Shown: piece by piece, positions 4,755 through 53,914 of the stretch | Numbering within the stretch: position 1 is the stretch's first letter | How the letters are laid out: each line of letters begins with the position of its first letter | Assembly: GCF_047602245.1 (NCBI RefSeq) | Contig: NZ_JASGHT010000001.1 | Location: forward strand, 1,463,896-1,527,895 | DNA: 64,000 bases | Reading direction: 5' to 3' | Source of the DNA: Propioniciclava sp. | Lineage (GTDB): Bacteria; Actinomycetota; Actinomycetes; Propionibacteriales; Propionibacteriaceae | Position numbers and translations under genes: made by a program | Notes under the pieces: generated by a model | Told to the model about the DNA's origin: nothing | Databases searched by the model: none | What the model saw: only the letters and a program-made list of their open reading frames with translations

Positions 4755-5264
4755 ATGGAAATCCTTGCCGAACTCGGCGACGTGGCGGTCGCCCGCGCGG
4801 ACCAGGAACATCTGCCGACCATCGCGCGCCTGCTCGCGGACGACCCCACGTCTCCGCAGTACGTGGCCACCACCACGCTGATCAGCGACGAGATCCTCGG
4901 CCCGCTCCGCGCGGTGTTCGATCTGGAGCCCTTCTTCGAGCGCATCATCGCCGATCCGAACCAGCTGCTCGCGGTGGTCCTCGACGAAGGCGACCGGGCG
5001 ATCGGCACCTTCCAGCTCACGATGATCCCGACCCTGGGTCGCGGTGGAGCCCTGCTCGCTGTGGCGTCGAACGCCCGCGTACGCGCGGGAGCCGACAGCG
5101 TCGCGGTGTCCAAGCGGGTGTTCACCTGGGTGATCGAGCATGCGCGCGCTCAGGGCGCCAAGGCGCTGCTGGTGATCGCCGAGAAGGAACGCGCCCATAT
5201 GCACGGCTTCTTCACCACGATGGGATTTAGGCCCACTCACGACGGTCTCGTGCTGCCGTTGTAG
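4755..5264 (+). CDS. GNAT family N-acetyltransferase
   Basis: About 170 aa with an acetyltransferase-like core; start at the internal ATG (MEILAEL). Confidence 0.65.
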   Translation: MEILAELGDVAVARADQEHLPTIARLLADDPTSPQYVATTTLISDEILGPLRAVFDLEPFFERIIADPNQLLAVVLDEGDRAIGTFQLTMIPTLGRGGALLAVASNARVRAGADSVAVSKRVFTWVIEHARAQGAKALLVIAEKERAHMHGFFTTMGFRPTHDGLVLPL

Positions 5265-7128: not shown

Positions 7129-8539
7129 TCAGCGCATCAGCGCGTGCGCCAGCGCCTCGATCAGTGTGCCCTGGCAGAACCGGAAGCCCGAGTCGACCAG
7201 TGTGCCCGAGGACACCCGCTGGTCGGTGTCGATCATCTGGTCGTAGCCCTCGGCACCCAGCATCAGCTTGGGCCCGAACGCGGGCGTCGGGATCGCCGAG
7301 GGGCGGTGCAGAACGCGGCCGAGCGTGTCCGCGAACTCGCCGTGGGTGACCGGGCGCGGTGCGACCAGGTTCACCGGACCCTCCAGCGCCTCGGTGGCCA
7401 GCGCATGCACGTAGCCGCGCACGGTGTCGTCAAGGCCGATCCAGCTGGTCCAGGCATCCGCCTTGGCGAGGCGTCCGCCCACGCCGAGGGAGAACAGCGG
7501 GATCTGCGGCGCGAGCGCACCGCCGCCCTCGCTGAGCACGATGCCGGTGCGCAGGAACACCGCCCGCGCCCCGGCGGCCACCACCGGACCGGCGGCGTCC
7601 TCCCAGTCGCGCACCACCTCGGCCAGGACGCCGTCGCCGGGGGCGGCGTCCTCGGTGAGCAGTTCGCCGGGACGCCGCGCCCCGTAGAACCCGACGGCGG
7701 ACGCCTGCACCCACGTCGGCACGCCCGCCGCGGCGGCAGCATCGGCCAGGGTGCCGGTTGCCTCGAGCCGCGAGATGCGGATCTTCTGTTTGTGCTTGGC
7801 CGTGAACCGCCCACCGATCGAATGACCGGACAGGTTGATCACCGCGTCCGCCCCCTCGAGCACCGCCGGGTCGAGGCGGTGCCGCGCCGGGTCCCATCGG
7901 GCGGTGCCGGGCCCGGGACGTCCGGAACGCACCAGCCGCACCACATCGTGCCCGGACGCGACCAGCAGCGCCGCCACCTGGGTCCCGATCAGGCCGGACG
8001 CCCCGGCCATCACCACGCGACGGGGCAGCGCGGCGAGCCGAGTGTGCAGGGCGAGGTCGTCGCGCAGCTGGCGGGCACGGAAGGCGAACAGGCCGTCAAG
8101 CTGCATCTCGACCAGGGCCTCGTCCAGCGGTCCGGGCAGGTTGACCGGCAACTCCCAGGTGACCCGGTCGGTGATCACCGTCGAGCCGCCGGGGCCGTCG
8201 GCGAACTCGTGCTCGTGGTACCAGCGCTTGAACGGCCCCGAACAGTTGCTGGTCGACGAACCGCACCCCGGGCTCCAGGTCGATGTGCCGCAGCCGCCAG
8301 CGGACGCCGAGCGGCCTTTTCGCCCCCTTGCGGGAGACCCCGGGAAGCAGGGCCGCGATCAGCGGATGCGAGACGACGATCTCGCTCTCGGAGCCGACGT
8401 TGATGCCATCGGTCGGCGGCTTCAGCGGCGTGGTCATGCCGGGCGGATGCAGCCGCAAGAACGCGGCCGGGCGCGTATGCCAGTCGAAGACGAGCGCACG
8501 CGGATACGGGTAGCGCGAGACGCGTTCGAACACGGGCAT
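7129..8539 (-). pseudogene. SRPBCC domain fused to TIGR01777/SDR39U1-type NAD-epimerase; reading frame broken near 8241
   Basis: ORF 8539..8096 (MPVFERVSRYPYP...FVDQQ) and ORF 8178..7129 (GPFKRWYHEHEF... then the Rossmann motif GASGLIGT) form one protein only if 1 nt is removed near 8241-8242. Confidence 0.65.
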
Positions 8540-8734
8540 GCGGGCCTCCTTTGGCGACACGTGCGTCCTGCCCAGCGTAGTGCGGACGAACGTGGGGCAG
8601 CAGGGCCCGCGCGAGTTACGATGGCCGGTAAACAACGTCGAGGACACCCCCTAGCGTCACCCAAGGCCACGACCCTGGCACCGGCCCGCACCCAACTCGC
8701 GGAGCCGGGTGGGCAGCACCGAAGGAGAATCAGC

Positions 8735-9220
8735 ATGCCCGTCACGTACGTCACCCACGACCTCGACGCTCGTACTTTGACGATCGTCGCCGACTTCGCC
8801 GCACCGGTCGATCGCGTGTGGCAGGTCTATGCGGACGCCTCGCAGTTGGCCCAGGTGTGGGGGGCTCCCGACTACCCGGCCACCATCGTCCACCACGACC
8901 TCACCCCCGGCGGTGAGATGCGCTACTACAAGACCTCGCCCGAGGGTGCCGTTTTCCACGGCCTGTGGCGGGTGCTGACCGTGGACGAACCGCACCGGCT
9001 CGTCTTTCAGGACAGCTTCGCCGATGAGGACTACGCGATCACCGAGGCGCTGCCGGTCTCGCAGTACAGCTGCGCCTTCGCCGAGCACGAAGGGGGCACC
9101 CGGGCCACCTATGTCGGCGTCTACCCGACCTCCGAAGGGCTTCAGCGGCTGATCAACATGGGCATGGTCGAGGGCATGATCGCCGCGCTCGCCCAGATCG
9201 ACGCGCTGCTCGCCAACTGA
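8735..9220 (+). CDS. SRPBCC (AHSA1/START-like) domain protein
   Basis: 161 aa beginning MPVTYVTHDLDARTLTIVADFAAPVDRVWQVY; GAAGGAG RBS upstream; paralogous to 9715..10200. Confidence 0.85.
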   Translation: MPVTYVTHDLDARTLTIVADFAAPVDRVWQVYADASQLAQVWGAPDYPATIVHHDLTPGGEMRYYKTSPEGAVFHGLWRVLTVDEPHRLVFQDSFADEDYAITEALPVSQYSCAFAEHEGGTRATYVGVYPTSEGLQRLINMGMVEGMIAALAQIDALLAN

Positions 9221-9319
9221 GGGCGCACCCGCATCCGGACGGACCAGCCACATCGCCCGTGGATCACGTCTTCACCCAAACCCTCGACACATACAACCAT
9301 TTGGTTGTATGTTGTGCTC

Positions 9320-9703
9320 ATGGAGAACGACGAGGACCGCGCGGACGCGATGTTCCACGCCCTCGCCGACCGGACCCGCCGCGACATCCTGCGCCGCGTG
9401 CTGACCGGGGAATCGTCGATCTCCACCCTGGCGGAGAAGTACGACATGAGCTTCGCCGCCGTGCAGAAACACGTCGCCGTCCTCGAACGAGCCGGGCTGA
9501 TCACCAAGCGCCGCTTCGGTCGCGAGGCGCTGGCCAGCGGCGACGTCCAAGCGGTCCGCTCGGTGCGCTCGATGCTTCTCGAACTCGAGGACGTCTGGCG
9601 CGGGCGGATCGCACGCATCGACGAGTTGCTCGCCGATCCGGCCCCATCCTCGACCACACCGGTCACCGGCCCGCAGGCGCCCGAGGGCGCCGGGCCCTCC
9701 TGA
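9320..9703 (+). CDS. ArsR/SmtB family transcriptional regulator
   Basis: ALADRTRRDILRRV...STLAEKYDMSFAAVQKHVAVLERAGLI winged-HTH signature. Confidence 0.85.
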   Translation: MENDEDRADAMFHALADRTRRDILRRVLTGESSISTLAEKYDMSFAAVQKHVAVLERAGLITKRRFGREALASGDVQAVRSVRSMLLELEDVWRGRIARIDELLADPAPSSTTPVTGPQAPEGAGPS

Positions 9704-9714
9704 AGGAGATCACC

Positions 9715-10200
9715 ATGCCCGTCACCCACGTCACCCACGATCTCGACTCCCGCACCCTGACCATCGTCGCCGACTTCGCCGCCCCGGTGGAGCGCGTCTG
9801 GCAGGTCTATGCGGACGCCGCCCAGCTCGCCCAGGTCTGGGGGCCGCCCACCTACCCGGCCACCTTCGTCCGTCACGAACTCACCCCCGGCGGCGAGATG
9901 CACTACTTCATGACCTCGCCCGAGGGTGAGCGCTTCTACGGCCTGTGGCGGGTGCTCACCGTCGACGAGCCGCACCAGTTCACCTTCGAGGACGCCTTCG
10001 CCGACGAGAACTTCGCGGTCGCCGAGACCCTGCCCGTCTCGCACAACACCTACGCCTTCGCCGAACACGAGGGCGGCACCCGGGCCACCTACACCGGCGT
10101 CTACCCCAGCGCCGAGGCGCTGCAGCAAGTGCTCGAGATGGGCATGGTCGAGGGCGCGACCCTCTCCCTCAACCAGATCGACGCACTGCTCGCCGGCTGA
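9715..10200 (+). CDS. SRPBCC (AHSA1/START-like) domain protein, paralog
   Basis: 161 aa, clearly paralogous to 8735..9220 along its full length; GAAGGAG RBS upstream. Confidence 0.85.
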   Translation: MPVTHVTHDLDSRTLTIVADFAAPVERVWQVYADAAQLAQVWGPPTYPATFVRHELTPGGEMHYFMTSPEGERFYGLWRVLTVDEPHQFTFEDAFADENFAVAETLPVSHNTYAFAEHEGGTRATYTGVYPSAEALQQVLEMGMVEGATLSLNQIDALLAG

Positions 10201-10247
10201 CCGCGCACCGCCTCCCCGGAGGGCTTCGGACACTCTGTCGGGGAGAG

Positions 10248-11423
10248 TCAGCTCGCGCGGTCCTGACCGTAGATCATCTGGCGTTCCAGTGCGGACTGGA
10301 CGTAGTCGACGAAGATCCGCGCCACCACCTCGGCACGGCTGTTCACACCGCACTTGGTGATGATGGCCTTCACGTGGTCGCGCACCGTGTGCAAGGACAG
10401 GCCCAGTTCGGCCGCGATCTCCTTGTCGGCCAGGCCTCGCGACAGCCGCTGCGCGATGTGCGCCTCGCGCGCGGTCAGCCCGAAACTCGCCATGGCGACC
10501 GGGATCAGGTCCGAGGCCCGCGCCGGTTCGATGCTGAGCGCCACCAGGTCGTCGCCTTCGGTCCGGGCCGCGCTGATCCTGAACCATGCCCCGGACGCCG
10601 ACCGCATCCGGGTGATCACCGCCTCGCCGGACGCGGCCGCCCGCGCCCGCGCGACCAGCCCACCGAGCATGCCCGGCACGCGCTCGTCCCCCTCCGCCTC
10701 GAACGGGGACGAGCGCCTGATATCGGCCAGCAGGCCTCGGGCGTCCGTCGTCGCGTGCACCAACCGGCCGGCGGAGTCGACGATCGCGATGCCCGAACCG
10801 ACCCCCGCCTCCGCCCCGCGGCTGACGGCCTGCTGAAGCATGCCGGCGACCGGACGGACCAGCGCGTGAACGCGCGCGAGTTCGGCGGGCTCGAACGGCC
10901 GGTCACGAAGAATGTGGACGAAGGCGCGGCAGTGCTCACCGGTGCGGAAGGCGACACGAAGCTCGTCGACGAACAGCGCGGGACGGAAGATATCGAGATA
11001 GCGCCGCGCCAGCCGGTCCGCGCTCTCATCGGCACCGGCTTCGGACGCCTCGGTGATCGCGGTGACGTCCGGCGGCAGGTCCGGGCATGACCGTCCGCCC
11101 TGCTGCCGCGCATGCGAGCGGGCAGCCTCGATCAGCGTGCGCACAGGGACGTCCGCCCGGGCTAGATCGACGAACTTGTTGAGCCCGGTCTCGGCAAACT
11201 CCGCGGCCCAGAAACCCTGGCACGCGTCTGCGGAAATGCCCTCCACCAGCCCGGCGATCGGCAGCAGGGTGGTCGGATCGACGACCAGCAGTGCGGCGCT
11301 ATCGAACCGGACCGCCTCGTGCAACATCGCCATGGATGCGCGCAGCGCCTCCGCGAGATCGGGCATGCCTGAGTTATCGCCCCGGCGCGAGCGCGGGCCG
11401 GTCCACCCGGCAGGTCCCCCCAT
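10248..11423 (-). CDS. LuxR family transcriptional regulator (GAF-like N-terminus)
   Basis: C-terminal LTAREAHIAQRLSRGLADKEIAAELGLSLHTVRDHVKAI is a LuxR/GerE HTH. Alternative start at 11366. Confidence 0.8.
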   Translation of the reverse strand: MGGPAGWTGPRSRRGDNSGMPDLAEALRASMAMLHEAVRFDSAALLVVDPTTLLPIAGLVEGISADACQGFWAAEFAETGLNKFVDLARADVPVRTLIEAARSHARQQGGRSCPDLPPDVTAITEASEAGADESADRLARRYLDIFRPALFVDELRVAFRTGEHCRAFVHILRDRPFEPAELARVHALVRPVAGMLQQAVSRGAEAGVGSGIAIVDSAGRLVHATTDARGLLADIRRSSPFEAEGDERVPGMLGGLVARARAAASGEAVITRMRSASGAWFRISAARTEGDDLVALSIEPARASDLIPVAMASFGLTAREAHIAQRLSRGLADKEIAAELGLSLHTVRDHVKAIITKCGVNSRAEVVARIFVDYVQSALERQMIYGQDRAS

Positions 11424-11551
11424 GCGCCCACAATAGGCGGACGCGCCGGGTCCCGAACAGGGGGTCAGCGCCGAACCGGGTCGGCGTCCGGCCTACTCAG
11501 AGCGGGCGCAGCGCCGCGCGAGGCCGTCGACGAGCCGGGGCTATCAGCCGA

Positions 11552-12775
11552 TCAGAGCGGGTCGCGTTCGATCGGGCAGGACATGCAGCGGGGGCCGCCG
11601 CGTCCGCGCCCGAGCTCGGAACCCGGCACCTCGATCACCTCGATGCCGCCGGCGCGCAGATCGGCGATGGAGGCCTGGTTACGCTCGTACCCGATCACCG
11701 TGCCGGGCGCGACCGCGAGGACATTGCAGCCGTCGTGCCATTGGTCGCGCTCGCGGGCGAAGTAGTCCTGCTGGGTGGACAGGATGCGCACCGAGTCGAT
11801 GCCCAAAGCGACGGCGAGGCTGGAGGCCAGGTCGCCGTCGAGCCGGGTCGTGCGCAGCGGCAGATCCATGTCGCCGGGCTCGATCAGGTAGCACTCGGGC
11901 TGGGGCAGGTCGGCGTACAGCAGGAACGACTCCGGGTCGACCATGGTGAGCACGGTGTCGAGGTGCATGAACGCGCGGCGCGCGGGCAGCCGCACGGCGA
12001 CGATCCGCTTGAGGGCGTTGTCGGCGAACAGGCGCAGCGCGAGCCGCTCGATCGCCTGCGGCGTGGTCCGCTCGGAGATGCCGACGAGTAGGGCGTCCGG
12101 CGAGATGACCAACACGTCGCCACCCTCGATGGTGGCGTTACCGGTCTCCAGATCCTCAGACCACACCCGGTGCCCGGTGCCGGCGAACAGCGGATGCCAG
12201 CGCAGGATCGCGCGATAGTTGACGGCCTCGCGGCGGCGGGCGAAGTGCTTCATCGAGTTCACCGAGACGCCGTCGCCGATCCAGCAGGTCGCGTCGCGGG
12301 TGAACAGGTGGTTGGTCAGCGGCGTCACCAAGAAGTCGTAGGGGTGCGCGATGCCGAACACCACCGACTGCGGGACCGGCATGCGGTCGAGCGCCTCCTG
12401 CTTGGTGAGGCCGCCGACGAGCACGTTGTACAGCTCATCGACCTCGGCGTGGGCCAGGTGAGACTGCAGCGCCTCGGCGAGGGCCGGGCCGAAGGTCCGG
12501 TCGTCGAAGGTCTGGCCGAGGACCCAGCCGCGGGCACCCGTGCTGGTCAGCGTCTCGCGCAGCAGCTGGTCGAAGTAGAGCACCTCGGCGCCCGCGCCCC
12601 GCAGCGCGTCCGCGAAGGCGTCGTGCTCCTCGTCGGCACGTTCCAGCCAGAGGCTGTCGTCGAAGAGCAACTCCTCGGAGTTGCTGGGCGTCAGCCGGGC
12701 GAGCTCAATGCCCGGACGATGCACGATCACACGGCGCAGTTGGCCGACTTCGGAGGTCACAGAGAGGCGTGGCAC
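11552..12775 (-). CDS. arcA: arginine deiminase
   Basis: 407 aa; SEVGQLRRVIVHRPG N-terminus and a catalytic Cys near the C-terminus (GGPRCMSCPI). Confidence 0.93.
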   Translation of the reverse strand: MPRLSVTSEVGQLRRVIVHRPGIELARLTPSNSEELLFDDSLWLERADEEHDAFADALRGAGAEVLYFDQLLRETLTSTGARGWVLGQTFDDRTFGPALAEALQSHLAHAEVDELYNVLVGGLTKQEALDRMPVPQSVVFGIAHPYDFLVTPLTNHLFTRDATCWIGDGVSVNSMKHFARRREAVNYRAILRWHPLFAGTGHRVWSEDLETGNATIEGGDVLVISPDALLVGISERTTPQAIERLALRLFADNALKRIVAVRLPARRAFMHLDTVLTMVDPESFLLYADLPQPECYLIEPGDMDLPLRTTRLDGDLASSLAVALGIDSVRILSTQQDYFARERDQWHDGCNVLAVAPGTVIGYERNQASIADLRAGGIEVIEVPGSELGRGRGGPRCMSCPIERDPL

Positions 12776-12807
12776 ATCGGCACCCTATCCGAACCTGCGC
12801 GGGTGTC

Positions 12808-12899
12808 GATGGTCGAAATCTATGTCCAGTTCGAGGGGGCATCTCCGCGACAAGGGGAAACGCGCGCAGGGTCACATCTGGACATAGATTTCGACCATC
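12808..12899. repeat. 92-bp hairpin element, copy 1 (22-bp perfect inverted arms, 48-nt core)
   Basis: GATGGTCGAAATCTATGTCCAG ... CTGGACATAGATTTCGACCATC. A second copy lies at 48613..48700. Confidence 0.85.
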
Positions 12900-12969
12900 T
12901 CAGAGCGGCGACGATCCCCTTCGGAGTCGCGAAACGGCCCCACCCGAGGCCCCAGGCGGCGCGAGCCGG

Positions 12970-14736
12970 TCAGGAACGGCGCTGCCAGTCGCGGATCATC
13001 GCGATCCGGGCATCCACCTGCTCGGTGGTGGCTTGGGCGAGCGCCGGCCCGCCGCACTGGCGGCGCAGTTCGGCGTGCACGTGGCTGTGCGGCATGCCCT
13101 TCACCCGGGCGTACTGCGACACCAGCGAGTTGAGCTCCTTGCGGCGAGCGGCCAGCGCGCGGTGCAACGAGGCCTCGGGGGTGAGCTTCTCGCGCTTATC
13201 GGCGCGGGCATGCCGGTTGATCTGCCGGTTCTGCCGCTCGCGCAGCAGGTGGGTGATCTGTTCGGTGTCGAGCAGCCCGGGCAAGCCGAGATAGTCAGCC
13301 TCATCGTCGGAGGTGGGCACGGCATGCATGCCGAACTGCTGCGATTCGAACAGCACGTGGTCGAAGGTGGCCGCCGAGTCGATCGCCTCGAAGGCGCCCA
13401 TCAACTCATCGGAGGCCGCCTCGCGCCGGTTCGCCGCCTCAATCAGTGCCTCCGCCTCGGCCCAGACGTCGATCACCTCGTCGCCGGCCTTGCGGCCGAG
13501 GATGTGGTCGCGCTGCCGCTCCAGCGATGAGGCGTGCGCCAGGATGATCGGCACCGTCGGCAGGAATACCGTCGCCACCTCGCCGCGGCGCCGGGTGCGC
13601 ACGAAGCGGCCGACCGCCTGAGCGAAGAACAGCGGGGTCGACGTGGCGGTCGCGTACACACCCACCGCCAGCCGCGGCACGTCGACTCCCTCCGACACCA
13701 TGCGCACCGCCACCATCCAGCGGTCCTCGGATTCGGCGAACGCATCGATCCGTCCGCTCGACCCAGCGTCGTCGGAGAGCACCAGCGTGGGCTTCGTTCC
13801 GGTGATCGACTCCAGCAGCCGCGCGTAGGCGCGGGCATGGGTCTGGTTGGTGGCGATCACCAGACCGCCGGCGTCGTGCACGTGGCGGCGCACCTCGGTC
13901 AGCCGGCGGTCGGCCGCGCGCAGCACGGCGGCGATCCACTCCCCCTTCGGGTCGAGCGCGGTGCGCCACGCCTGCTGGGAGACGTCCTTGGTGGTCAGCT
14001 CGCCCAGGTTGGCCTCGATCGTGTCGCCGGACTTGGTGCGCCAGCGCATCGGCCCGCCGTAGTTCATGAACACGACCGGGCGCACCACGTGGTCGCGCAG
14101 CGCGTCGGCGTAGCCGTAGGTGTAGTCGGCCCGCGAGATCAGGCCGCCGCCGGGCGCCTCGGTGTAGGTGACGAACGGGATCGGGTTGTCATCGGACCGG
14201 AAGGGCGTACCGGTCAGCGCGAGCCGCCGGGTCGCGTACTGGAACGCCTCGCGCACCGCGTCGCCCCACGACAGCGCATCACCGGCGTGATGCACCTCAT
14301 CGAGAATCACCAGCGTCTCGGAGTTGGCCGTCATCGTCTGGTAGCTGAGCATGGCGGCGGCCACACCCGCGTAGGTGACCGCCACCCCGTTGAACTGCCG
14401 GGACCGCCCGCGGCGGCGTCCGCCCAAGCCGGGGTCGAGCTGGATGCCGACCTTGGCGGCGGCGTCCGCCCACTGCACCTTGAGGTGCTCGGTGGGGGCG
14501 ACCACGATCACCCGGCGCACGATCCGGGCGGCGAGCAGTTCGGAGGCCACCCGGAGCGCGAACGTCGTTTTGCCCGCACCCGGGGTCGCGACCGCGAGGA
14601 AATCCCGCGGCGCGGTGCTCAGGTACAGCTCGAGCGCCTCGGCCTGCCAGGCCCGCAGCCGCGCCGAGGTGCCCCAGGGAGCGCGCTGCGGGAAGGCCGG
14701 GCTGATCCGGTCGAACGCAGAGGAGGTGGGCGACAT
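12970..14736 (-). CDS. superfamily 2 DEAD/DEAH-box helicase (XPB/Ssl2- or type III res-like)
   Basis: Walker A TPGAGKT, DEVHH box, helicase C-terminal motifs, and an unassigned basic tail of about 110 aa. Confidence 0.85.
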   Translation of the reverse strand: MSPTSSAFDRISPAFPQRAPWGTSARLRAWQAEALELYLSTAPRDFLAVATPGAGKTTFALRVASELLAARIVRRVIVVAPTEHLKVQWADAAAKVGIQLDPGLGGRRRGRSRQFNGVAVTYAGVAAAMLSYQTMTANSETLVILDEVHHAGDALSWGDAVREAFQYATRRLALTGTPFRSDDNPIPFVTYTEAPGGGLISRADYTYGYADALRDHVVRPVVFMNYGGPMRWRTKSGDTIEANLGELTTKDVSQQAWRTALDPKGEWIAAVLRAADRRLTEVRRHVHDAGGLVIATNQTHARAYARLLESITGTKPTLVLSDDAGSSGRIDAFAESEDRWMVAVRMVSEGVDVPRLAVGVYATATSTPLFFAQAVGRFVRTRRRGEVATVFLPTVPIILAHASSLERQRDHILGRKAGDEVIDVWAEAEALIEAANRREAASDELMGAFEAIDSAATFDHVLFESQQFGMHAVPTSDDEADYLGLPGLLDTEQITHLLRERQNRQINRHARADKREKLTPEASLHRALAARRKELNSLVSQYARVKGMPHSHVHAELRRQCGGPALAQATTEQVDARIAMIRDWQRRS

Positions 14737-14824: not shown

Positions 14825-15430
14825 TCAGAACCCGACGAGCAACTCCTGCATGAGGGTGATCTCGGTCTTCTGGGTGCGCACGACGTCCTCGGCAAGCTGC
14901 TTGACGCGCGGGTCGGAGCCTGTCGCCAGCACGCTCTCGGCCATGGCGACGGCACCCTCGTGATGGGCGATCATGCCCTCGAGGAACAGCTTCGTCGCGG
15001 CCAGCGTGTCGGCGTCCTGCAACGCCTTGAGACCAGCGGCATCCAGCATGCCGTGGGAGGGGTCGTGCGCCGCATGGGCGCCCACTTCGGGCTGGCCCCA
15101 CTCCTTGAGCCAGCCGCGCATCCGGTCGATCTCGGGCTGCTGGGCGTCCTTGATCGCGGTGGCGAGTTCCTTGATCTCGGTCGACAGGCCCGGCTTGCCC
15201 AGCAGGATGTCGCTCATCTGCACCGCCTGTTCGTGATGGCCGATCATCTGCTGCGCGAACGTGACATCGGCGGGAGAGGCCGCGACCGTTGCGGCCGCCG
15301 ACGCGGCCGGAGAGCCGGCCGGGGTCGAGGTCGCGGGCGCGCCCGAGCAGCCCGCCAGAACGATGGCGGTCACGGGAACCAGCCAGAGCGAACGCAGCGC
15401 GCGGCTCGGAGAGGTCAGGGGGTGATTCAT
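14825..15430 (-). CDS. DUF305 family lipoprotein
   Basis: Lipobox LAGC; duplicated HHEQAV / HHEGAV helices typical of DUF305. Confidence 0.8.
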   Translation of the reverse strand: MNHPLTSPSRALRSLWLVPVTAIVLAGCSGAPATSTPAGSPAASAAATVAASPADVTFAQQMIGHHEQAVQMSDILLGKPGLSTEIKELATAIKDAQQPEIDRMRGWLKEWGQPEVGAHAAHDPSHGMLDAAGLKALQDADTLAATKLFLEGMIAHHEGAVAMAESVLATGSDPRVKQLAEDVVRTQKTEITLMQELLVGF

Positions 15431-15441
15431 CGGTTACTCCT

Positions 15442-15933
15442 TCATGGTCGGGTCAAGTGCTCGTGGAGCGCATCGAGCAGGGGGACCTGCCCGAGAGTCA
15501 GTTTCGTGCGAGCCTCGTCGAGAGAGAACCATCCCGCGCGGTCAACCTCGGGATAGGTGCGGTAGCGTCCCGAGCGGCGCGGCCATTCGACCTCGAACGT
15601 GTTCGAGGCGACGAACGCCAGATCGGGTGAGGCCTCCACCGCGAAGCCGTGCACCCGTTTGCCCGAACTGAGCCGCACCTCGCCCAGGTCGATCAGCTCA
15701 CCTTCGGGCGCCGGCACCCCCACCTCTTCGCCGAACTCACGGCGTGCGGCGTCCTCGGGAGCCTCGTCGCCCGGGATGTACATGCCCTTGGCAAGCGACC
15801 ACCCACCCCGGTCGCGGTGCCCCCAGAACGGCCCACCCATGTGCACGATGAACACCTGGACGCCTGCGTCCCCGACGGTGAACGGCAGGAGTCCGGCGCT
15901 GTAGAGGGGCATGGGGTCCATCGTGCCACTCAC
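15442..15933 (-). CDS. NUDIX hydrolase
   Basis: Nudix box GMYIPGDEAPEDAARREFGEEVGV. Confidence 0.8.
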   Translation of the reverse strand: MSGTMDPMPLYSAGLLPFTVGDAGVQVFIVHMGGPFWGHRDRGGWSLAKGMYIPGDEAPEDAARREFGEEVGVPAPEGELIDLGEVRLSSGKRVHGFAVEASPDLAFVASNTFEVEWPRRSGRYRTYPEVDRAGWFSLDEARTKLTLGQVPLLDALHEHLTRP

Positions 15934-18891: not shown

Positions 18892-19188
18892 ATGAGTGTC
18901 AAGCCTGGTTTGACGCCGAAACGTGAGCGGGAGATCCCTGAGTATGCCGCGATGGTGCGGCGGGTGAACATGGCTCTGGGGCGCCGTGTGGGTGATGCCG
19001 ATGTCGAGGACCTGGCCGAGTTGCTCGCGATGCGTGGGGTTGTCGAGCAGGCGACCGCCACGGCGATCCGGGGTATGCGGCGCCGAGGCGTCTCGTGGGG
19101 CGACATCGGCCGCGGCCTGGGAGTCACGCGGCAAGCGGCTCATGCGGCGTGGGCGTGGGTTGAAAGTCTCGACCACGGTCCTCGATGA
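18892..19188 (+). CDS. small HTH protein (possible excisionase/RDF or regulator)
   Basis: GVSWGDIGRGLGVTRQAAHAAW is HTH-like; ATGA overlap with the integrase start. Confidence 0.55.
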   Translation: MSVKPGLTPKREREIPEYAAMVRRVNMALGRRVGDADVEDLAELLAMRGVVEQATATAIRGMRRRGVSWGDIGRGLGVTRQAAHAAWAWVESLDHGPR

Positions 19189-20066
19189 CGGGGGCCGGCG
19201 CTCTACTGTCCGGCGGCGTGAATCTGGACGATCCTCGATCGAAGTATGTGCCTGCCTGTTGGTGTGAGCCGATCGCGGCGTGGTGCGCTGCGCTGGTGAC
19301 AGCAGGCCGGGCGGCGGACACTGTGGTGACGCGTGGCGACCAGCTGCGCCGGCTTGCGCGGGCGATGGGCGATGTCGGCCCGTGGGACGTGACGAGTGTG
19401 CAGCTCGTCGAGTGGGCTGCTCGGCAGGTGTGGAGCCGGGAGACGCGCCGGAGTGTCTACGCCGGCGTCCGAGCGTTCTACCGGTGGGCGGTCGGCGCGG
19501 GTTTGATCGGCCACTCCCCTGCTGATGGTCTGCCGGCGGTGCGGGCGTCTGATCCGTGCCCGCGGCCGACGCCGGATGACGTGCACCACCAGGCGCTCGC
19601 CGATGCTGATCCGCGGACGTGGATCATCTTGAGGCTCGCGGCCGAGGCTGGTTTACGGCGTGGTGAGATCGCCCGGGTGCATGCTCGTGACTTGTGGCGT
19701 GATCTCGCGGGGTGGAGCCTCACGGTGCACGGCAAGGGCGGCAAGACGCGGGTGGTGCCACTCACGGACGCGTTGGCGGACGCGCTGCGCGTGGCGATCG
19801 CCGCGGCGGGCGGCGGGTGGGTGCTGCCTGGCGATGTGGACGGGCACCTGTCACCGCGCTGGGTCGGCACACTGGCTGCTCGGGTGTTGCCGGGCGCTTG
19901 GACGCTGCACAGTTTGCGGCACCGGTTCGCCACGAGGGCTCATGACGCGACTCACGACCTGATCGCTGTCCAGCGACTTCTAGGGCATGCGTCGGTTGCC
20001 ACGACCCAGCGCTACGTTGCGTCGTCTCAGGATGCTCTACGTCGTGCGGCCGCGGCCGCCGCGTAG
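19185..20066 (+). CDS. int: tyrosine recombinase / phage integrase
   Basis: GLRRGEI (Arg I), HSLRHRFAT (H-x-x-R) and LGHASVATTQRY (catalytic Tyr). Ends in RRAAAAAA. Confidence 0.9.
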   Translation: MTGAGALLSGGVNLDDPRSKYVPACWCEPIAAWCAALVTAGRAADTVVTRGDQLRRLARAMGDVGPWDVTSVQLVEWAARQVWSRETRRSVYAGVRAFYRWAVGAGLIGHSPADGLPAVRASDPCPRPTPDDVHHQALADADPRTWIILRLAAEAGLRRGEIARVHARDLWRDLAGWSLTVHGKGGKTRVVPLTDALADALRVAIAAAGGGWVLPGDVDGHLSPRWVGTLAARVLPGAWTLHSLRHRFATRAHDATHDLIAVQRLLGHASVATTQRYVASSQDALRRAAAAAA

Positions 20067-20084
20067 CAGATACGCTCAGGGTTC

Positions 20085-20318
20085 ATGAAGTGCTGGGGGT
20101 GCGGCCTTGACCTCGATGACGGCGAGGCGTGCTGGAGGTGCGAAGTGGTGCCGGCGTTGCGCCAGGTGTGCGCAGACGCCGACACCGATTGCTGGGTGAC
20201 GTGCGGGGATCAGTCCCGCTGCGACGAGCTATTCGTTCATGACGCCGGGTTGGGCAGTGCTGATGTCGCCTTGGGCTTGGCGGGTGCGGGCGGCGTCTCG
20301 GTCGGCGAGGGCTGCTGA
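20085..20318 (+). CDS. hypothetical Cys-rich protein
   Basis: CWGC...CWRC zinc-ribbon-like pairs. Its 3' end overlaps the convergent holin-like gene by 90 nt. Confidence 0.3.
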   Translation: MKCWGCGLDLDDGEACWRCEVVPALRQVCADADTDCWVTCGDQSRCDELFVHDAGLGSADVALGLAGAGGVSVGEGC

Positions 20319-20564
20319 GACGGCGGCCTTGATCCGGGCGTCCAGGACGCCGTTGGTCTGTGAGGCGGCTTGGGCGCTGTTTCGGCTGGCAGAGGCGACG
20401 ACTTCGCCGACGAGGAGCCCGAGGATCACGGGTCCGGCGATGACCCAGATGGGTGAGGAATCGACGCCGGATTGCTCGGCGGCCAGCCAGGCGCCGAGGA
20501 ACAGGCCGGTCATGATGATGCCGGCGACGAGGGAGCGTAGCGGCATGGTCTTGTCGTTGGTCAC
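20229..20564 (-). CDS. holin-like membrane protein
   Basis: Two TM helices; GTGA overlap with the endolysin stop; last gene of the late operon. Confidence 0.55.
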   Translation of the reverse strand: MTNDKTMPLRSLVAGIIMTGLFLGAWLAAEQSGVDSSPIWVIAGPVILGLLVGEVVASASRNSAQAASQTNGVLDARIKAAVSAALADRDAARTRQAQGDISTAQPGVMNE

Positions 20565-21346
20565 AGCGCGGCCTCTTCGGCGTCCGTGGTCTTGGTGATG
20601 TGGTTGTAGATCGCGGCGATCGCGTCGTCGGTGCGGATGCTGGTGCCGTCGGCGAGGGTCAGGCGCTCGAGCTCGGCGGCGGCGGCGAGGGCGTCGTCGC
20701 GCGTGGTGGTCCACGTGCGGGCAGGGTCGCGGCCGCTGACGGGGATGGCGGCGGCGAATGCTGCGGTGAGCTCGTCGCGGATGATGGTGCGGAGCTCGTC
20801 TTTGGTGGCCATGATGTCGTCTTCCTTGGGCTGGGTGTGGGTGGTGGTGGGTGCCGGTAAGCCGGCGCGGACCCAGGCGCGTAGGTGCGGGCCTGGGCAG
20901 TCGGTGCGGGTGCTGCCGGCGTCGCCGTGGCCGACGATGGTGCAGCCCTTGGCTGCCTTGCCGGCGAGCTCGTGGGCGACGCGGCGCAGGGTGGTGAGCA
21001 TGGCGGGGGTGGGGGTCTCGGCCATGCCGAGGATGGCCAGGATGGATTGCGAGGTGCCACCCTGACCGGCGGTGGCGCCGTCGCGGACGTCGGCGCCGCG
21101 GAGCTCCCAGACTCGGCCGGCTTGGTCGACGCCGACCGCGTAGGCGATGTCGGTCCAGCCTTGGACGGCCTGGTGATAGCGCTGCCAGGCGCGCAGGTAG
21201 CTGGCGATCGCCTCGGGGTTGGCGCCGATTGGGGTGGTGGAGGCGGGCCAGTGGATGACGATTTTACGGACGCGTGACCAGGTGAGCAGGGTGCGGCCTT
21301 TGGCCGGTTGCGCACCCCAGTCGGTGCGGCGGTAGTCATAGCGCAT
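20561..21346 (-). CDS. N-acetylmuramoyl-L-alanine amidase (PGRP/Amidase_2) endolysin
   Basis: IVIHW, IAYAVGVDQAGRVWELRG and GHGD...TDCPG motifs. Confidence 0.85.
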   Translation of the reverse strand: MRYDYRRTDWGAQPAKGRTLLTWSRVRKIVIHWPASTTPIGANPEAIASYLRAWQRYHQAVQGWTDIAYAVGVDQAGRVWELRGADVRDGATAGQGGTSQSILAILGMAETPTPAMLTTLRRVAHELAGKAAKGCTIVGHGDAGSTRTDCPGPHLRAWVRAGLPAPTTTHTQPKEDDIMATKDELRTIIRDELTAAFAAAIPVSGRDPARTWTTTRDDALAAAAELERLTLADGTSIRTDDAIAAIYNHITKTTDAEEAAL

Positions 21347-21361
21347 TCGACGGGCCTTTCG

Positions 21362-23194
21362 TTATGCGTTAGCGATGGTGGTGACGCTGCCGGAGGAGCC
21401 GCGGTATTTCAGGGCGCCGTTTTCGACGTAGATGATTCCGCCGCTGGCCGGGCTCGCGGTCGGCACAGCGTGGGCGTTGCGGATTCCGATCACGCCTTTC
21501 CCGGCGCCGAGCCCGGATGATTCTTGGGCGCCGGCCAGCAGTGTCGAGCCGGGGATGATGAGCGGCAGCCCGTCTGCCGACGGGTAGTTCGCGATTGGGC
21601 CGGGGTGCGAGTTCGCCATGCTCAAGACGTTGCGCGAGGTGGCGAAGGAAAGTTGCTCGGTGGCGCGGTTTCCGGGGTCGGTGATGGTATTGCCGATAGC
21701 GACGATTCGGGTGGCGTCTGGGGCGAGAACGGCCATGGATCGGCGGGTCGTGGCCGTGTTGGTGGTCCAGGAACTGGTGATCGCGTTGAGGGCGACGACG
21801 ACGGCGCCGAGCGTGCCGGTGAGGAGCAGGCCACTGCTGCCTGAGGCGTGGATGAGGTTGGCGGAAACCACGGCGTCAGTGACGGATTGGATCAGGATTC
21901 CCGTGACGCCGGCATCGGTGACCGTGTTGCCGGTGACGGTGATCGCGTAGCAGCCGGGGCCGCCGGAGCCGACCATGATGCCGTGCCAGGCGGCGGCGGT
22001 GACGGTGTTGCCGGTGATGCTGATCGCGCGGACGGGGTGGTCGACGGATGATCCGACGACCTGGATGCCGGCATAGTTGGTGGTAGCACCATATGTGTTC
22101 GCTTGCGTGATGGTGTTTCCGGAAATCGTGACGTTAGCGGTAGATCGGATTCCGTAGGAGCTTTCTTCTGCGATGTAGATCCCGGCGTTGCGCGTGGTGT
22201 CGACTGCATTGGAGCTGATGGCGACGGTGTCACCGCCGACCACAGCGATGCCGCGGCTGTGAGACTGGCGGATCACGTTGCCGGTAATGCTGACAGATCG
22301 GCAGCGGCCGGAATCGGTCAGGTAGGAGACCACCGCGATGCTGTCGTCTCCCGTGTTCTCGAGCTGGTTGCCGGTAATGGTGATGTCTCGTGATGCGCCG
22401 GTGACGTGAATGCCGTCGGCTTTGGTGTCGCGGATGTGGCATCCCTCGATCCGTCCGGAAGTGCAGCCATGGCCGACGTAGATGCCGACGCCCTCTGTGC
22501 CGGTGGTTGAGCAGCGGGCCACGCTCCAGCGGTCGGAGGACTCGATGGAGATGCCTCGGGTGGGGCCGCGGCGCAGGGTGGGGTTGGCCCCGCGGGAGAT
22601 GAGGCCGTCGAGGGCGAAGTCTGTGCACCCGACGAGCTGGAGGTATGGCTTGGTGGTGGAGGAGCAGACGAGTTCTGCGCCGTCGCCGAGAAGCTGGAAG
22701 TGGTGACGGCTGGCGATGGTCAGGCCGCGATGGTGGTAAGCGCCGCGCGGGAAGTAGAGGGCGTCGCCGGGCTCGAGTGCAACAAAGAGGTCGTTGAGCG
22801 CGTCGGTGATGTCGCTTCCGTCGCCGTAAATGCCACGTAGGGCCACGTTGATGGGGAGTCGGGTGGTGACGAAAGCGATTCGGTCGGCGACCGCGTTGGC
22901 GGTCTCGGTGGCGCTGTCGTCGATGAGGTGCGCGACGGCGTCATCCTCACCCGTCAGTCCCATGATCTGTTCGGCGGTGGCCAGCGCGGCTTGCATCTGT
23001 TGCCCGGCGGCGATCAGTGCTGGGAGTTGCGCGAGCCAGGTGGTCGCCGCGTCGTTCGAGGCAGTGAGCTTCGAGGCGAGCCGCTGCGTGTACTCGGGCA
23101 GTAGATAGAGGTAGTTGCTGCTGTCGAGGAGCGGGAAGCCGCCGGGGTCCATGCGGCCGATTTCATCGTCGTGCGGGGGGATGGACAGTGTCAT
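21362..23194 (-). CDS. tail fibre/spike protein with right-handed parallel beta-helix (pectate-lyase fold)
   Basis: Many repeats of the I(T/S)GN(T/V)I(T/R) type; ATGA overlap with the upstream gene. Confidence 0.7.
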   Translation of the reverse strand: MTLSIPPHDDEIGRMDPGGFPLLDSSNYLYLLPEYTQRLASKLTASNDAATTWLAQLPALIAAGQQMQAALATAEQIMGLTGEDDAVAHLIDDSATETANAVADRIAFVTTRLPINVALRGIYGDGSDITDALNDLFVALEPGDALYFPRGAYHHRGLTIASRHHFQLLGDGAELVCSSTTKPYLQLVGCTDFALDGLISRGANPTLRRGPTRGISIESSDRWSVARCSTTGTEGVGIYVGHGCTSGRIEGCHIRDTKADGIHVTGASRDITITGNQLENTGDDSIAVVSYLTDSGRCRSVSITGNVIRQSHSRGIAVVGGDTVAISSNAVDTTRNAGIYIAEESSYGIRSTANVTISGNTITQANTYGATTNYAGIQVVGSSVDHPVRAISITGNTVTAAAWHGIMVGSGGPGCYAITVTGNTVTDAGVTGILIQSVTDAVVSANLIHASGSSGLLLTGTLGAVVVALNAITSSWTTNTATTRRSMAVLAPDATRIVAIGNTITDPGNRATEQLSFATSRNVLSMANSHPGPIANYPSADGLPLIIPGSTLLAGAQESSGLGAGKGVIGIRNAHAVPTASPASGGIIYVENGALKYRGSSGSVTTIANA

Positions 23195-24564
23195 GTGGTT
23201 CTCCAGCTGGTCGGCGCGTCGACGACGCGGGTATCGATGATGCGGATCTGGTCGGCGAGGGTCAGCGGGTCGTCGAGTGGTCCGCAATGCTCGAAGCGGG
23301 CGGCGACGGTGTCTCGAGGCCTTGGGTTGGTGGGGACATCGGCGGGCGTCGGCCAGTCTGACCACCTCATCGGGCGGATTCCGGCGGTGACGGCCGGGGC
23401 GAGGGTGACGCTGGCTGTGAGCTGGCCGGCGGCGATCTCGATGGTGCCGGCAGAGATGTAGACGGCGGGGTCGAGATCGGCGGGCACGGGGTCTAGGAAG
23501 AAGATGGTGGTGGTGCGCCGGCGGACGTCTAGGACGGCGTCCCAGGGCACATCGTCGAGGCCGACGGCCAGGCGGGCGGCGGTGAGGACCGGTCGCGGGG
23601 TGGTGCCTTCGCCGGCGATGCCAGCGGCGAAAGGGCCGATCTCGGGGAGGACGACTGTGGACGGGTCGAGGGGGTGAGCGGCGGTGGTCTCGAATTCGAG
23701 GTCGGTGTCGATCGTCAGTGACGCTGTGGGGAGGTGCCGGGCCTGCGGCGATCGCCAGTTGCGGCTTGTCTCGCTGACGTCGCCGGTGTCGCGGTCGGCG
23801 ACGTAGAAGGTGACACGGACAACTGTGACTAGCCCGCGGCGACTTAGGTCGCGTCCGGCGTCCTCGACGCGGGAGGCTGACAGGACCGCGGGGGGCGCGC
23901 CGCGTGAGACGACGGCGGCCGGTGGGTGGGGTGGGTCATGGCGGGGGACTCTGATATGTGTGCCGTCAGGGTGCACGAGGGCTATGCCGGTCGAGCTCGC
24001 GACTGCGAGGCGGGCGTAGCTTGAGGCGGTCCGGTGGATGATCTCGAGGGCGTCGGCGGCGTCGACGTCTCGGGCGACCAGCCACTGATGCTCTGGTGAG
24101 TCGTCGTCGGGGTCGAGGAGCGCTATGGGGGATGCGTGGTTGATCTGTGCGATGCGGTCTCGGAGCCGCACGTCAGCGGCTGGCCACGGGGACGCGGCGA
24201 GTCGGATTCCGGCGGCGCGTCCGACTGCGTTCGCGGCGGCGATCTTGTAGATCCAGGCATCGGAGGTGCGGCGGGCGTGGACTGATTCGACCCACCATGA
24301 CCCAAGGTCGAGGGTGGCGTTGTGGACTCGGCAGGATATGTGCAGTTTTGAGTCGAGGTGGATGAGCCCCGGGGTGGGGTAGCGGAGCGTAAGGGATAGT
24401 GAGCCTGGCTCTTCGTGGGTGCGGGCGTTCGGGTGCGACCACTCGCAGGTCAGGGCGCCGACGGCGGTGAGGATGCCGAGGTTAGCGGCTGCACCGCTTG
24501 TCGTGTTCACCGTGATGGTGTCGTCGATCTTGAGAGAAACGTCGACGGGCGTGGACCACCTCAT
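23191..24564 (-). CDS. minor tail protein
   Basis: Lies directly downstream of the tape measure gene; ATGA overlaps at both ends. Confidence 0.55.
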   Translation of the reverse strand: MRWSTPVDVSLKIDDTITVNTTSGAAANLGILTAVGALTCEWSHPNARTHEEPGSLSLTLRYPTPGLIHLDSKLHISCRVHNATLDLGSWWVESVHARRTSDAWIYKIAAANAVGRAAGIRLAASPWPAADVRLRDRIAQINHASPIALLDPDDDSPEHQWLVARDVDAADALEIIHRTASSYARLAVASSTGIALVHPDGTHIRVPRHDPPHPPAAVVSRGAPPAVLSASRVEDAGRDLSRRGLVTVVRVTFYVADRDTGDVSETSRNWRSPQARHLPTASLTIDTDLEFETTAAHPLDPSTVVLPEIGPFAAGIAGEGTTPRPVLTAARLAVGLDDVPWDAVLDVRRRTTTIFFLDPVPADLDPAVYISAGTIEIAAGQLTASVTLAPAVTAGIRPMRWSDWPTPADVPTNPRPRDTVAARFEHCGPLDDPLTLADQIRIIDTRVVDAPTSWRTT

Positions 24565-26042: not shown

Positions 26043-26159
26043 GGGCTTACCTCCTTGCTGCGCGGTCGTCGAGGATGGTGAGGATGGTCGCGATCTGCTG
26101 GTCGTCCTGCTGGAGGAGCCAGGGCATCGGGAAGCCGGGGGCGGCTGCCGCGATCTCGG

Positions 26160-26480: not shown

Positions 26481-26482
26481 GG

Positions 26483-26833: not shown

Positions 26834-26834
26834 G

Positions 26835-27257: not shown

Positions 27258-27259
27258 GA

Positions 27260-48540: not shown

Positions 48541-48612
48541 GCCCGCGCGCTCGGTGAGGGCATCACAGAGGCGGCTCAGGATGAGGTCGCGGCGGTCGGC
48601 TGCGCGCACGCA

Positions 48613-48700
48613 TGGTCGTTTTCTATGTCCAGTTTGGAGGGGAGGGTCCACGACAAGGGCAAACGCGACGGCGGGTGAATCTGGACATAGAAATCGACCA
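48613..48700. repeat. hairpin element, copy 2
   Basis: TGGTCGTTTTCTATGTCCAG ... CTGGACATAGAAATCGACCA with a 48-nt core homologous to the core of copy 1. Confidence 0.85.
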
Positions 48701-48747
48701 CCGGTGCGCCCGGAGGTCTCGCGGGTTCGTGCGCTACCTTCGGTCGG

Positions 48748-52820: not shown

Positions 52821-53777
52821 GTGAAAGGCAACACGCGCTCCTACCGTGACCTCGTGGGAATGAACCAGACAGGGGCGCACGGCGACGGGCGCGGCGGCAC
52901 GACCGGACGCCGTGCGGCCGGGATCGTCATGATGCTGGCCAGTTCGGCGTCCAACCAGGCGGGCGCGGCGATCGGGGCGATGGCGTTTCCCGCGATCGGA
53001 CCGGTGGGAGTCGTGGCGGTGCGGCAGTTCGCCACCGCGCTGGCCCTCGTCCCGTCCGTGCGCCCGCGCGTGCGCGGGCTGCGGCGGGATCAGTGGCTGC
53101 CGGTACTCGGGCTGGCCGCCGTGTTCAGCGTGATGAACCTGACCCTCTATATGGCGGTCGAGCGCATCGGGCTCGGGCTCGCGGTCACGCTGGAGTTCCT
53201 CGGCCCACTGACGGTCGCCATCGCCGGGTCGCGCCGCGCGATCGATGCGGTGTGCGCGATCCTGGCCGGCGCCGGCGTCCTGGTGCTGACCAATCCGGGA
53301 CCGGCCACCGATCTGCCCGGCATCGCGCTCGCGCTGACGGCCGCGGTGGCGTGGGGCTGCTACATCCTGCTCAACCGGATCCTCGGCGTGCGCCTGCCGG
53401 GACTGCACGGAACCGCGCTGGCCAGCGCGGTCACCGCGGTGCTCTGGCTGCCGGTCGCCGTGGTCTGGTTCGCGACCCATCCGCCGACGGCGACGGCGCT
53501 GCTGCTCGCGGCCGCCTGCGGGCTGCTGTCCTCGATCGTCCCCTACGTCGCCGACCTGCTCGCGCTGCGCCGCGTCCCCGCCGCCATGTTCGGCATCTTT
53601 ACCAGCATCAACCCGGCCTGGGCCGCGCTGGCGGGGTGGCTCCTCCTGCACCAGGCGCTCGGCGCCCACGAGTGGCTCGGCATCGCGATGATCGTGGTGA
53701 GCAGCCTCACCGTCTCCCTGCGGGGCATATCGTCGGCAAGGGCCAGGACCAAGAAATGGTCGTTCTCAGAGCGCTGA
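52821..53777 (+). CDS. EamA/DMT family transporter
   Basis: 10 TM segments in a duplicated EamA pattern; start uncertain. Confidence 0.75.
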   Translation: MKGNTRSYRDLVGMNQTGAHGDGRGGTTGRRAAGIVMMLASSASNQAGAAIGAMAFPAIGPVGVVAVRQFATALALVPSVRPRVRGLRRDQWLPVLGLAAVFSVMNLTLYMAVERIGLGLAVTLEFLGPLTVAIAGSRRAIDAVCAILAGAGVLVLTNPGPATDLPGIALALTAAVAWGCYILLNRILGVRLPGLHGTALASAVTAVLWLPVAVVWFATHPPTATALLLAAACGLLSSIVPYVADLLALRRVPAAMFGIFTSINPAWAALAGWLLLHQALGAHEWLGIAMIVVSSLTVSLRGISSARARTKKWSFSER

Positions 53778-53914
53778 TCAGCGCTCCCGAGGGGTTGGGC
53801 CACGGTGTGGTCGTTATCATCGAGAGCTTGATGCCTTATAACGACCACAGCGTGGCCCAAGCCGCCTCAGGCGTCGCCGACCCCTCTGAAAACGACTTTT
53901 TCTTGGTCCTAGCC
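53741..53914. repeat. 174-bp nested imperfect palindrome between convergent genes
   Basis: Outer stem 53746-53771 pairs with 53884-53909 (26 nt, 3 mismatches). Inner stem 53793-53817 pairs with 53838-53862 (25 nt, 2 mismatches). Confidence 0.8.

Follow-up and report, generated by a model that had tools for sequence, protein, structure and literature searches.

Two copies of a palindromic unit of about 90 bp have been identified in the intergenic DNA of a 64-kb stretch (the window) of the genome of Propioniciclava sp., on the 3.54-Mb contig NZ_JASGHT010000001.1. The first copy lies between a helicase gene and the arginine deiminase gene arcA, and the second lies between the ethanolamine ammonia-lyase gene eutC and a gene encoding a DUF885 protein. 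Both copies consist of terminal inverted repeats of 20-22 bp (the arms) that enclose a core of 48 bp, and both are discrete, non-coding and absent from the related genomes with which they were compared. [quoted passage not shown] The other explanations are weighed below together with the evidence that bears on them.

The arms of copy 1 (GATGGTCGAAATCTATGTCCAG on the left) are 100% complementary over 22 bp and are separated by 48 nt. By chance, approximately 1e-5 perfect inverted repeats of 22 bp, with a spacer of at most 150 nt, would be expected in 64 kb of the same composition. In copy 2, 19 of the 20 positions of the arms are paired and one is a T:T mismatch, and the core likewise measures exactly 48 nt. 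An extra pairing of GCGCAC with GTGCGC begins 3 nt beyond the arms of this copy. The two copies have the same orientation on the + strand, lie 35.8 kb apart and are 78% identical over 88-92 nt, and 25 of the 92 positions differ between the units. This agrees with the original prediction, which had described perfect 22-bp arms around a 48-nt core in copy 1 and had placed a second copy with the same orientation and core length at 48613-48700.

Each arm is made up of TGGTCG, a 3-nt A/T tract and the 11-mer TCTATGTCCAG. Within the window, this 11-mer is confined to the four arms, where 0.27 matches would be expected in the whole window. The arms have a GC content of 45% compared to 70% for the genome. 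The 60-nt flanks of both copies are only 27-28% identical, which corresponds to the random level, and the unit is therefore a discrete and sharply bounded repeat and not part of a larger duplicated region. A third copy was not found in the window using blastn (word size 7), nhmmer or a covariance model that was built from the two copies and run with the filters off, and no solitary arm is present anywhere in the window. When folded as RNA, both strands of the units are equally stable (-49 to -53 kcal/mol, z -5 to -8), and as DNA the units reach -27 to -30 kcal/mol. Isolated arms fold at -0.2 to -1.9 kcal/mol, which is no better than shuffled sequence. The coordinates of the two copies, their parts and the associated features are listed in Table 1.

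Table 1. Positions in the window of the two palindromic units, their parts, the inferred promoter elements and a further palindrome.
Feature	Position	Strand	Description
Copy 1, palindromic unit	12808..12899	+	92 nt; between helicase stop (12970, -) and arcA start (12775, -)
Copy 1 left arm	12808..12829	+	GA-TGGTCG-AAA-TCTATGTCCAG (= GATGGTCGAAATCTATGTCCAG)
Copy 1 core	12830..12877	+	48 nt, with conserved block CGACAAGGGGAAACGCG and 4-bp mini-stem CUCC/GGGG
Copy 1 right arm	12878..12899	+	perfect complement of left arm
Copy 2, palindromic unit in the frame of copy 1	48611..48702 (strict arms 48613-48700)	+	between eutC stop (48540, +) and DUF885 start (48748, +)
Copy 2 left arm	48613..48632	+	TGGTCG-TTT-TCTATGTCCAG
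Copy 2 core	48633..48680	+	48 nt, 71% identical to copy 1 core in gapped alignment
Copy 2 right arm	48681..48700	+	CTGGACATAGA-AAT-CGACCA, one T:T mismatch against left arm
Outer palindrome extension, copy 2 only	48604..48609	+	GCGCAC, pairing with GTGCGC at 48704-48709
Inferred -10 hexamer TAGGGT, putative leaderless arcA promoter	12782..12787	-	6 nt before GTG start, 20 bp from unit; relatives have TAGTGT
Inferred -10 hexamer TACCTT, putative leaderless DUF885 promoter	48735..48740	+	7 nt before GTG start, 34 bp from unit; relatives have TACCTT or TAGCTT
Composite (nested) palindrome	53741..53914	.	174 nt; between convergent ends of EamA transporter gene and acetyl-CoA carboxylase gene

Copy 1 is flanked by a DEAD/ResIII helicase gene (12970-14736, - strand) and by arcA (11552-12775, - strand), and copy 2 is flanked by eutC (ending at 48540, + strand) and by the DUF885 gene (48748-50427, + strand). 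Judged by the proteins encoded beside the copies, the window belongs to the Propionibacteriaceae, close to Nigerium. The DUF885 protein has 85% identity to a protein from a Nigerium sp. metagenome-assembled genome (MAG) and 77% identity to one from Propioniciclava. The core has the same + strand orientation at both sites and consequently has the opposite orientation relative to the flanking genes. As had been stated before, the unit is intergenic in both places and its orientation to the genes differs (helicase and arcA on the - strand, eutC and DUF885 on the + strand). The distance from the upstream stop codon is exactly 70 nt for each copy (12900-12969 and 48541-48610), and the distance from the end of the unit to the next start codon is 32 nt for copy 1 and 45 nt for copy 2. 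By eye, the two 70-nt stretches show no similarity to each other.

Putative -10 hexamers of arcA and the DUF885 gene were assigned using the actinobacterial TANNNT rule and alignment with relatives. In this alignment, the TANNNT hexamer located 6-7 nt before the start codon is the sole conserved intergenic sequence, which suggests that both genes are transcribed as leaderless mRNAs. A scan with the consensus sigma-70 promoter found nothing at either site, and for this reason the leaderless state of the mRNAs can only be inferred. If the mRNAs are leaderless, the unit would be transcribed only by read-through from the helicase gene or eutC or from a promoter of its own, and, being located upstream of both inferred promoters, it could not be the 5' leader of arcA or the DUF885 gene. 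No promoter or terminator consensus was found in or beside the unit on either strand, and the stem is not followed by a U-tract.

The unit was not found at the corresponding positions in relatives with 85-89% protein identity, which belong near Nigerium. In a MAG with 87% identity for ArcA (L002), the adjacency of the helicase gene and arcA is kept, and the gap of 170 bp between them does not contain the unit. A second relative (L003) likewise lacks it between the helicase gene and arcA, and a contig with 89% identity for ArcA (L005) has another upstream neighbour and no unit upstream of arcA. Two tandem arrays were observed in L002, namely an exact 18-nt repeat that occurs three times in tandem in the 170-bp gap, immediately ahead of the arcA promoter (4920-4977), and an array of units of approximately 31 nt in another intergenic gap (8800-8990). 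At the other site, the GDPD and DUF885 genes are divergent neighbours in a Nigerium MAG (L015) and an ENA contig (L016), with 92-138 bp and no unit between them, and in Propioniciclava soli (L020) two other genes are present between GDPD and DUF885, again with no unit. Compared to these three, the GDPD-DUF885 junction of the window has approximately 3.9 kb extra (about 44846-48725), consisting of a permease gene, eutB, eutC and copy 2. The cargo at this junction in P. soli is a different one (MTES_1575 and NUDIX genes), and the junction therefore looks like an insertion hot spot.

The closest relatives of EutC (83-76% identity; L017, L018 from Micropruina and L019) show no homology past the stop codon, and two of these (L017 and L018) carry their own, unrelated hairpins after eutC. 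The hairpin in the Micropruina MAG (L018, 6793-6877) lies between convergent genes, at approximately 20 nt downstream of the stop of eutC, and has 40-nt arms that are 90% complementary and a loop of 5 nt; its arms each begin with TGGACCG and end with CGGTCCA. This hairpin was considered as a possible homologue of the arms of the unit and was rejected, as the alignment scores were not above those of shuffled sequences (p 0.06-0.57).

Broader searches gave a similar result. The covariance model was run on eight related loci (approximately 70 kb) in addition to the window and detected only generic hairpins there. Searches were also performed in public collections that apparently do not include the window's own genome: the GTDB species genomes, scanned with an exact pattern of the inner parts of both arms separated by 38-58 nt, gave one chance match only; the JGI metagenomes, scanned with an exact single-arm pattern, gave nine chance matches, seemingly in coding DNA as judged by eye; a pattern scan of IMG/VR gave no copy; and no real match, nor an insertion sequence (IS) with these ends, was obtained when the unit was compared with PLSDB and phage records by blastn. 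Queries of 301 nt and 10 kb matched no listed sequencing run. The chance match in GTDB is from a Chryseolinea MAG (L001, 4230-4400) and is an unrelated array of AAAACTGGACATA-like units spaced approximately 30-35 nt apart. A literature search for the arm sequence returned unrelated primers only. As far as searchable databases go, the unit is a new family of a well-known kind of element.

In the arms, the differences between the two copies are confined to the 3-nt A/T tract between the invariant TGGTCG and TCTATGTCCAG and to the outermost base on each side. In this tract, the left arm changes from AAA to TTT and the right arm from TT to AA, with the result that U-A replaces two neighbouring A-U pairs and a third pair is broken, exactly as had been described. 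The chance placement of this paired change is roughly estimated at a few in a thousand. The change is therefore not random, yet it is one block and probably one event, and copying from arm to arm in a DNA palindrome, through template switching or gene conversion, explains the pattern as well as selection for pairing. The claim that the change points to selection on the stem rather than to decay of the copies is therefore not upheld as it was stated, since a single block of two pairs is involved and repair of a DNA palindrome would produce it equally well. In addition, compensatory changes have been reported to be common in the mobile hairpins known as REPINs (PMC3116915).

The arms differ at 7 of 44 positions (16%) and the cores at 18 of 48 positions in an ungapped alignment (Fisher p = 0.03). 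A gapped alignment of the cores recovers a +1/-1 pair of indels, with an identity of 35/49 (29% different), and gives p values of 0.07-0.21 for arms versus core. The better conservation of the arms is thus a trend only. The net length of the core is identical in both copies despite the likely indels. Of the sequence blocks that had been reported as shared by the cores, the 17-nt block CGACAAGGG(G/C)AAACGCG is in register and is kept at 16 of 17 positions, whereas GAGGGG and GGGT are present in both cores but shifted by 1 nt when aligned without gaps. The only fold that both cores have in common is a mini-stem of 4 bp on the + strand, with one C-G to G-C swap. Because only two sequences are available, the covariation in the core and the stem has no statistical weight.

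Prokaryotic MITEs have been described as elements of less than 500 bp that end in terminal inverted repeats of 4-30 bp, whose direct repeats degrade as the copies grow old and whose transcripts form hairpins (PMC10969869). The unit, with arms of 22 and 20 bp, a length of 88-92 bp and a hairpin predicted for its RNA, agrees with this description apart from the direct repeats, and it has no coding capacity. A small protein was considered as well, as a 30-codon ATG frame is open in both copies, but was rejected. Codon differences counted by hand are approximately 4 synonymous versus 13 non-synonymous, the GC3 of the frame is approximately 57% versus 86-94% in the genes of the genome, and the frame runs on into the unrelated flanks. 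The closest known systems include the Correia repeat-enclosed elements (CREE) found in Neisseria, along with MITEs of prokaryotes in general. These are likewise short and non-coding, with terminal inverted repeats of approximately 20-26 bp and a conserved core, and they are found in intergenic DNA in either orientation, by promoters and gene ends, with transcripts that fold into a long hairpin (PMC10969869; PMC2649163). Correia elements differ in being 100-200 bp long, in occurring in tens to hundreds of copies and in duplicating a TA target, whereas two copies are visible here and no duplication is found. Correia elements also have a site for IHF and ends that form promoters, whereas no IHF or promoter motif is recognisable in the unit, and no related sequence was found in any other genome searched.

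REPINs, which are REP (repetitive extragenic palindromic) doublets of Pseudomonas and Enterobacteria that are mobilised by RAYT transposases, are similar to the unit in several respects. They are symmetrical units of approximately 90-110 nt in which both inverted ends are highly conserved, the spacer is less conserved but keeps its length, and compensatory changes are found along the hairpin (PMC3116915), although the contrast between arms and core is a trend only in our case. The unit is likewise an inverted doublet with a spacer of fixed length that forms a hairpin (arms versus core, p 0.03-0.21), and its ends start 70 bp apart compared to 71 bp in the GI REPIN of Pseudomonas (PMC3116915). 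In contrast, each end of a REPIN holds a REP that is palindromic in itself, whereas the arms of the unit do not fold alone, and no RAYT/Y1 transposase is present among the open reading frames (ORFs) of the window that were run through Pfam. Actinobacteria are not mentioned in the RAYT/HuH papers that were searched.

According to the interpretation as a MITE/REPIN-like repeat, an enzyme that acts in trans and is encoded at another place in the genome would recognise both identical ends and would copy or move the whole unit into intergenic DNA. The arms of one copy would stay complementary, as both ends must fit the same protein, and may also be corrected mutually by template switching; these two processes together would explain the paired AAA/TTT block. 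Read-through from the helicase gene or eutC would fold the unit into a hairpin of 20-22 bp, which could act as a barrier at the 3' end or as a target of RNase III, as in Correia and ERIC elements. Such an effect on transcripts would be a side effect and not the reason for the existence of the unit. The unit is intergenic at both sites, has either orientation to the genes and leaves the conserved -10 elements intact.

Several observations weigh against this interpretation. The target-site duplications that the original prediction had suggested looking for are lacking, as no direct repeat of at least 2 bp flanks both copies at any consistent boundary. Only two copies are visible, in 64 kb of a 3.5-Mb genome, and no transposase or RAYT was detected by Pfam among approximately 55 ORFs of the window, in which a prophage integrase is the sole recombinase. 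No sign of spread was seen in the GTDB representatives, JGI metagenomes and IMG/VR, nor an IS in the PLSDB and phage records. With 85-89% protein identity, the intergenic DNA of the relatives is too diverged to be aligned significantly, and a clean empty site is therefore not available. A candidate empty site at copy 2, where the flanks GCACGCA and CCGGTGCGC resemble GCACGCCTCCGGTGCGC of the relatives, was rejected, as the alignment of the left flank did not exceed those of shuffled sequences (138-321 of 500). Finally, the equal spacing of 70 nt after the stop codon and the exactly kept length of the core hint at constraint at the level of the host.

The first alternative is a hairpin at transcript ends that is maintained by the host, similar to REP elements or to TRIT, a motif of mycobacteria. 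This explanation is considered rather unlikely, and it is compatible with a mobile origin of the unit. Read-through RNA would fold into the long stem, which would make the polymerase stop or pause, keep out 3' exonucleases or serve as a substrate of RNase III. The next gene, with a promoter of its own, would thereby be insulated. As the hairpin is palindromic, it would work in either orientation. Both copies are indeed located between co-directional genes, at exactly 70 nt from the upstream stop codon and ahead of the inferred -10 hexamer of the next gene, and the predicted RNA fold is very stable on both strands. Long hairpins also follow the eutC genes of L017 and L018, and more long hairpins are present at gene ends in the window. 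A role at transcript ends would explain the equal 70-nt spacing, which would otherwise be a coincidence. However, the stem is not followed by a U-tract, which the mycobacterial RNA polymerase reportedly needs, and no terminator-like site is present on either strand. In addition, an interior of 48 nt is atypical for a terminator, and the relatives manage without the unit at the same junctions. The precedent for such a hairpin is TRIT, which is a genus-restricted palindrome of Mycobacterium with conserved sequence and structure, is largely bidirectional, is located near gene ends in a high-GC actinobacterium, lacks a canonical U-tail and is present in 147 copies in M. tuberculosis (PMC3152330). 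Compared by description only, TRITs have a short loop and overlap the stop codon, at about position -8 (PMC3152330), whereas the unit has a 48-nt interior, begins at +70 and is visible in two copies.

A smaller probability is given to a paired operator, in which each arm would be a binding site for a DNA-binding regulator, and the two proteins, bound at a distance of 70 bp, would control the arcA and DUF885 promoters by looping or wrapping the core. Both target genes are found beside nitrogen-releasing pathways (arginine deiminase and ethanolamine ammonia-lyase). The outer TGGTCG is identical in all four arms, as are the inner 13 bp, and the varying tract stays A/T, which fits two contacted blocks with an unread spacer in between. 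The unit ends 20 bp ahead of the inferred -10 element at arcA and 34 bp ahead of that at the DUF885 gene, and regulators of the LuxR and ArsR types are encoded 1.4-3.5 kb from copy 1 in DNA that is specific to the window. On the other hand, this difference in distance to the promoters, together with the flipping of the asymmetric core relative to them, does not suit an operator, and a regulator does not need exact complementarity of 20-22 bp between distant sites. Solitary arms are also absent from the 64 kb, and the relatives have the same promoters without the unit. To our knowledge, no operator consensus fits the arms (ArgR, AmtR CTAT-N6-ATAG, DasR, GlnR, DosR, Crp/ArcR, the DnaA box and parS were considered).

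A structured non-coding RNA, either a small RNA or a cis element on the + strand at both sites, is improbable. In such an RNA, the stem would present an internal loop and a mini-hairpin (CGACAAGGG-AAACGCG). The shared + strand orientation of the copies, the conservation of the 17-nt core block, the swapped pairs (one C-G to G-C in the mini-stem and two in the main stem) and the strong fold z-scores are in line with this idea. However, the - strand folds equally well, the swapped pairs come from two sequences and carry no statistical weight, and perfect duplexes of 20-22 bp are unusual in functional bacterial RNAs. The copies share no promoter-like element upstream and no terminator follows them, the orientation of the core to the flanking genes is opposite at the two sites, the inferred leaderless promoters are located downstream of the unit, and the unit is conserved in none of the relatives searched. 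A search of the whole window against Rfam at the gathering threshold returned only two tRNAs, and the sole match of the two copies, searched separately at E up to 10, was a chance match to the plant miRNA MIR538 (16 bits versus a gathering score of 100), which is in agreement with the earlier remark that the element was not recognised as a known riboswitch or small RNA. From the three candidates that had been proposed, namely a structured RNA, a mobile hairpin and a protein-bound DNA palindrome or terminator, the mobile hairpin is now favoured and the third remains, while the first has been weakened.

Site-specific recombination is the least probable explanation. The unit would then be a miniature invertible switch or an attC-like hairpin at the 3' end of an acquired eat-eutB-eutC cassette; each copy has two identical arms, which a crossover inside them would produce, the cores have opposite orientations relative to the two downstream genes, and copy 2 is located at the 3' end of the 3.9 kb that is absent in relatives, at a junction with different cargo in P. 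soli, but known invertases seem to require more than a 48-bp spacer for intramolecular synapsis, the core contains no conserved promoter-like sequence, no recombinase gene adjoins either copy (the sole integrase is in a prophage, 6 kb away), the ends TGGTCG...CGACCA have neither the R''/R' motifs of attC (RYYYAAC/GTTRRRY) nor extrahelical bases, and copy 1 does not mark the edge of a cassette, since the helicase gene is next to arcA in L002 as well.

One other palindrome in the window is possibly related to the unit. The composite palindrome at 53741-53914 has a DNA fold of -66.7 kcal/mol (z -11), and its inner and outer arms carry TGGTCGTT(A/C)TC. Its inner arms are preceded by CACG-N4, and copy 2 has CACG-N2-3. 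The motif TGGTCGWWW is present seven times in the window compared to 1.19 times expected, and six of the seven are located within the unit copies and this palindrome. Local alignments of the palindrome with the unit were not significant (p 0.04-0.49), and a relationship between the two is suggestive only. The genome may carry a wider set of palindromes with a common end motif. A more speculative possibility, to which we attach little probability, is that a REPIN-like system of vertically kept palindromic replicators exists in this actinobacterium, with an enzyme that recognises TGGTCG-W3-TC ends and with relatives such as the 53741-53914 palindrome, and that it perhaps helps to capture or delimit acquired blocks of the eat-eutBC type.

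Another hairpin, with perfect arms of 26 bp and a loop of 12 nt, is present at 37634-37697, with a related half copy upstream (37592-37623). This region (37592-37698) is located between the genes of tRNA-Ser (37326-37415) and tRNA-Trp (38073-38146)/RtcB. The window also contains a prophage-like region at about 19000-35000. Its genes code for a tyrosine integrase (19185-20066), an amidase and a beta-helix protein that resembles tail proteins, together with a prohead protease, a portal protein and a large terminase. A tRNA-Arg gene (34898-34971) is found near the end of this region, and the GC skew is strongly positive over 20-32 kb. In the vicinity of copy 1, two segments are absent from the syntenic contig L002. 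The segment at 8200-11550, between arcA and an epimerase gene, contains AHSA1-like, ArsR-type and LuxR-type genes. The segment at 14825-15933 separates the helicase gene from that of alanine dehydrogenase and contains DUF305 and NUDIX genes.

For the annotation of genomes, the unit provides a note of caution, as a perfect long hairpin that has one 'compensatory' block and is observed in two copies provides no evidence of a regulatory RNA. If the unit is a mobile palindromic repeat, it would represent a family newly described for the Propionibacteriaceae. Neither Actinobacteria nor Mycobacterium, Corynebacterium or Streptomyces are mentioned in a review of prokaryotic MITEs from 2024, and REP/RAYT-type systems have been described mainly from Proteobacteria. 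A distinct actinobacterial counterpart with non-palindromic ends, if it exists, would constitute a new variant that has an enzymology of its own. Mobile palindromic repeats are useful as strain markers and can alter the expression of neighbouring genes, which in this organism would be the genes for arginine deiminase and for the DUF885 protein beside the acquired ethanolamine-utilisation block.

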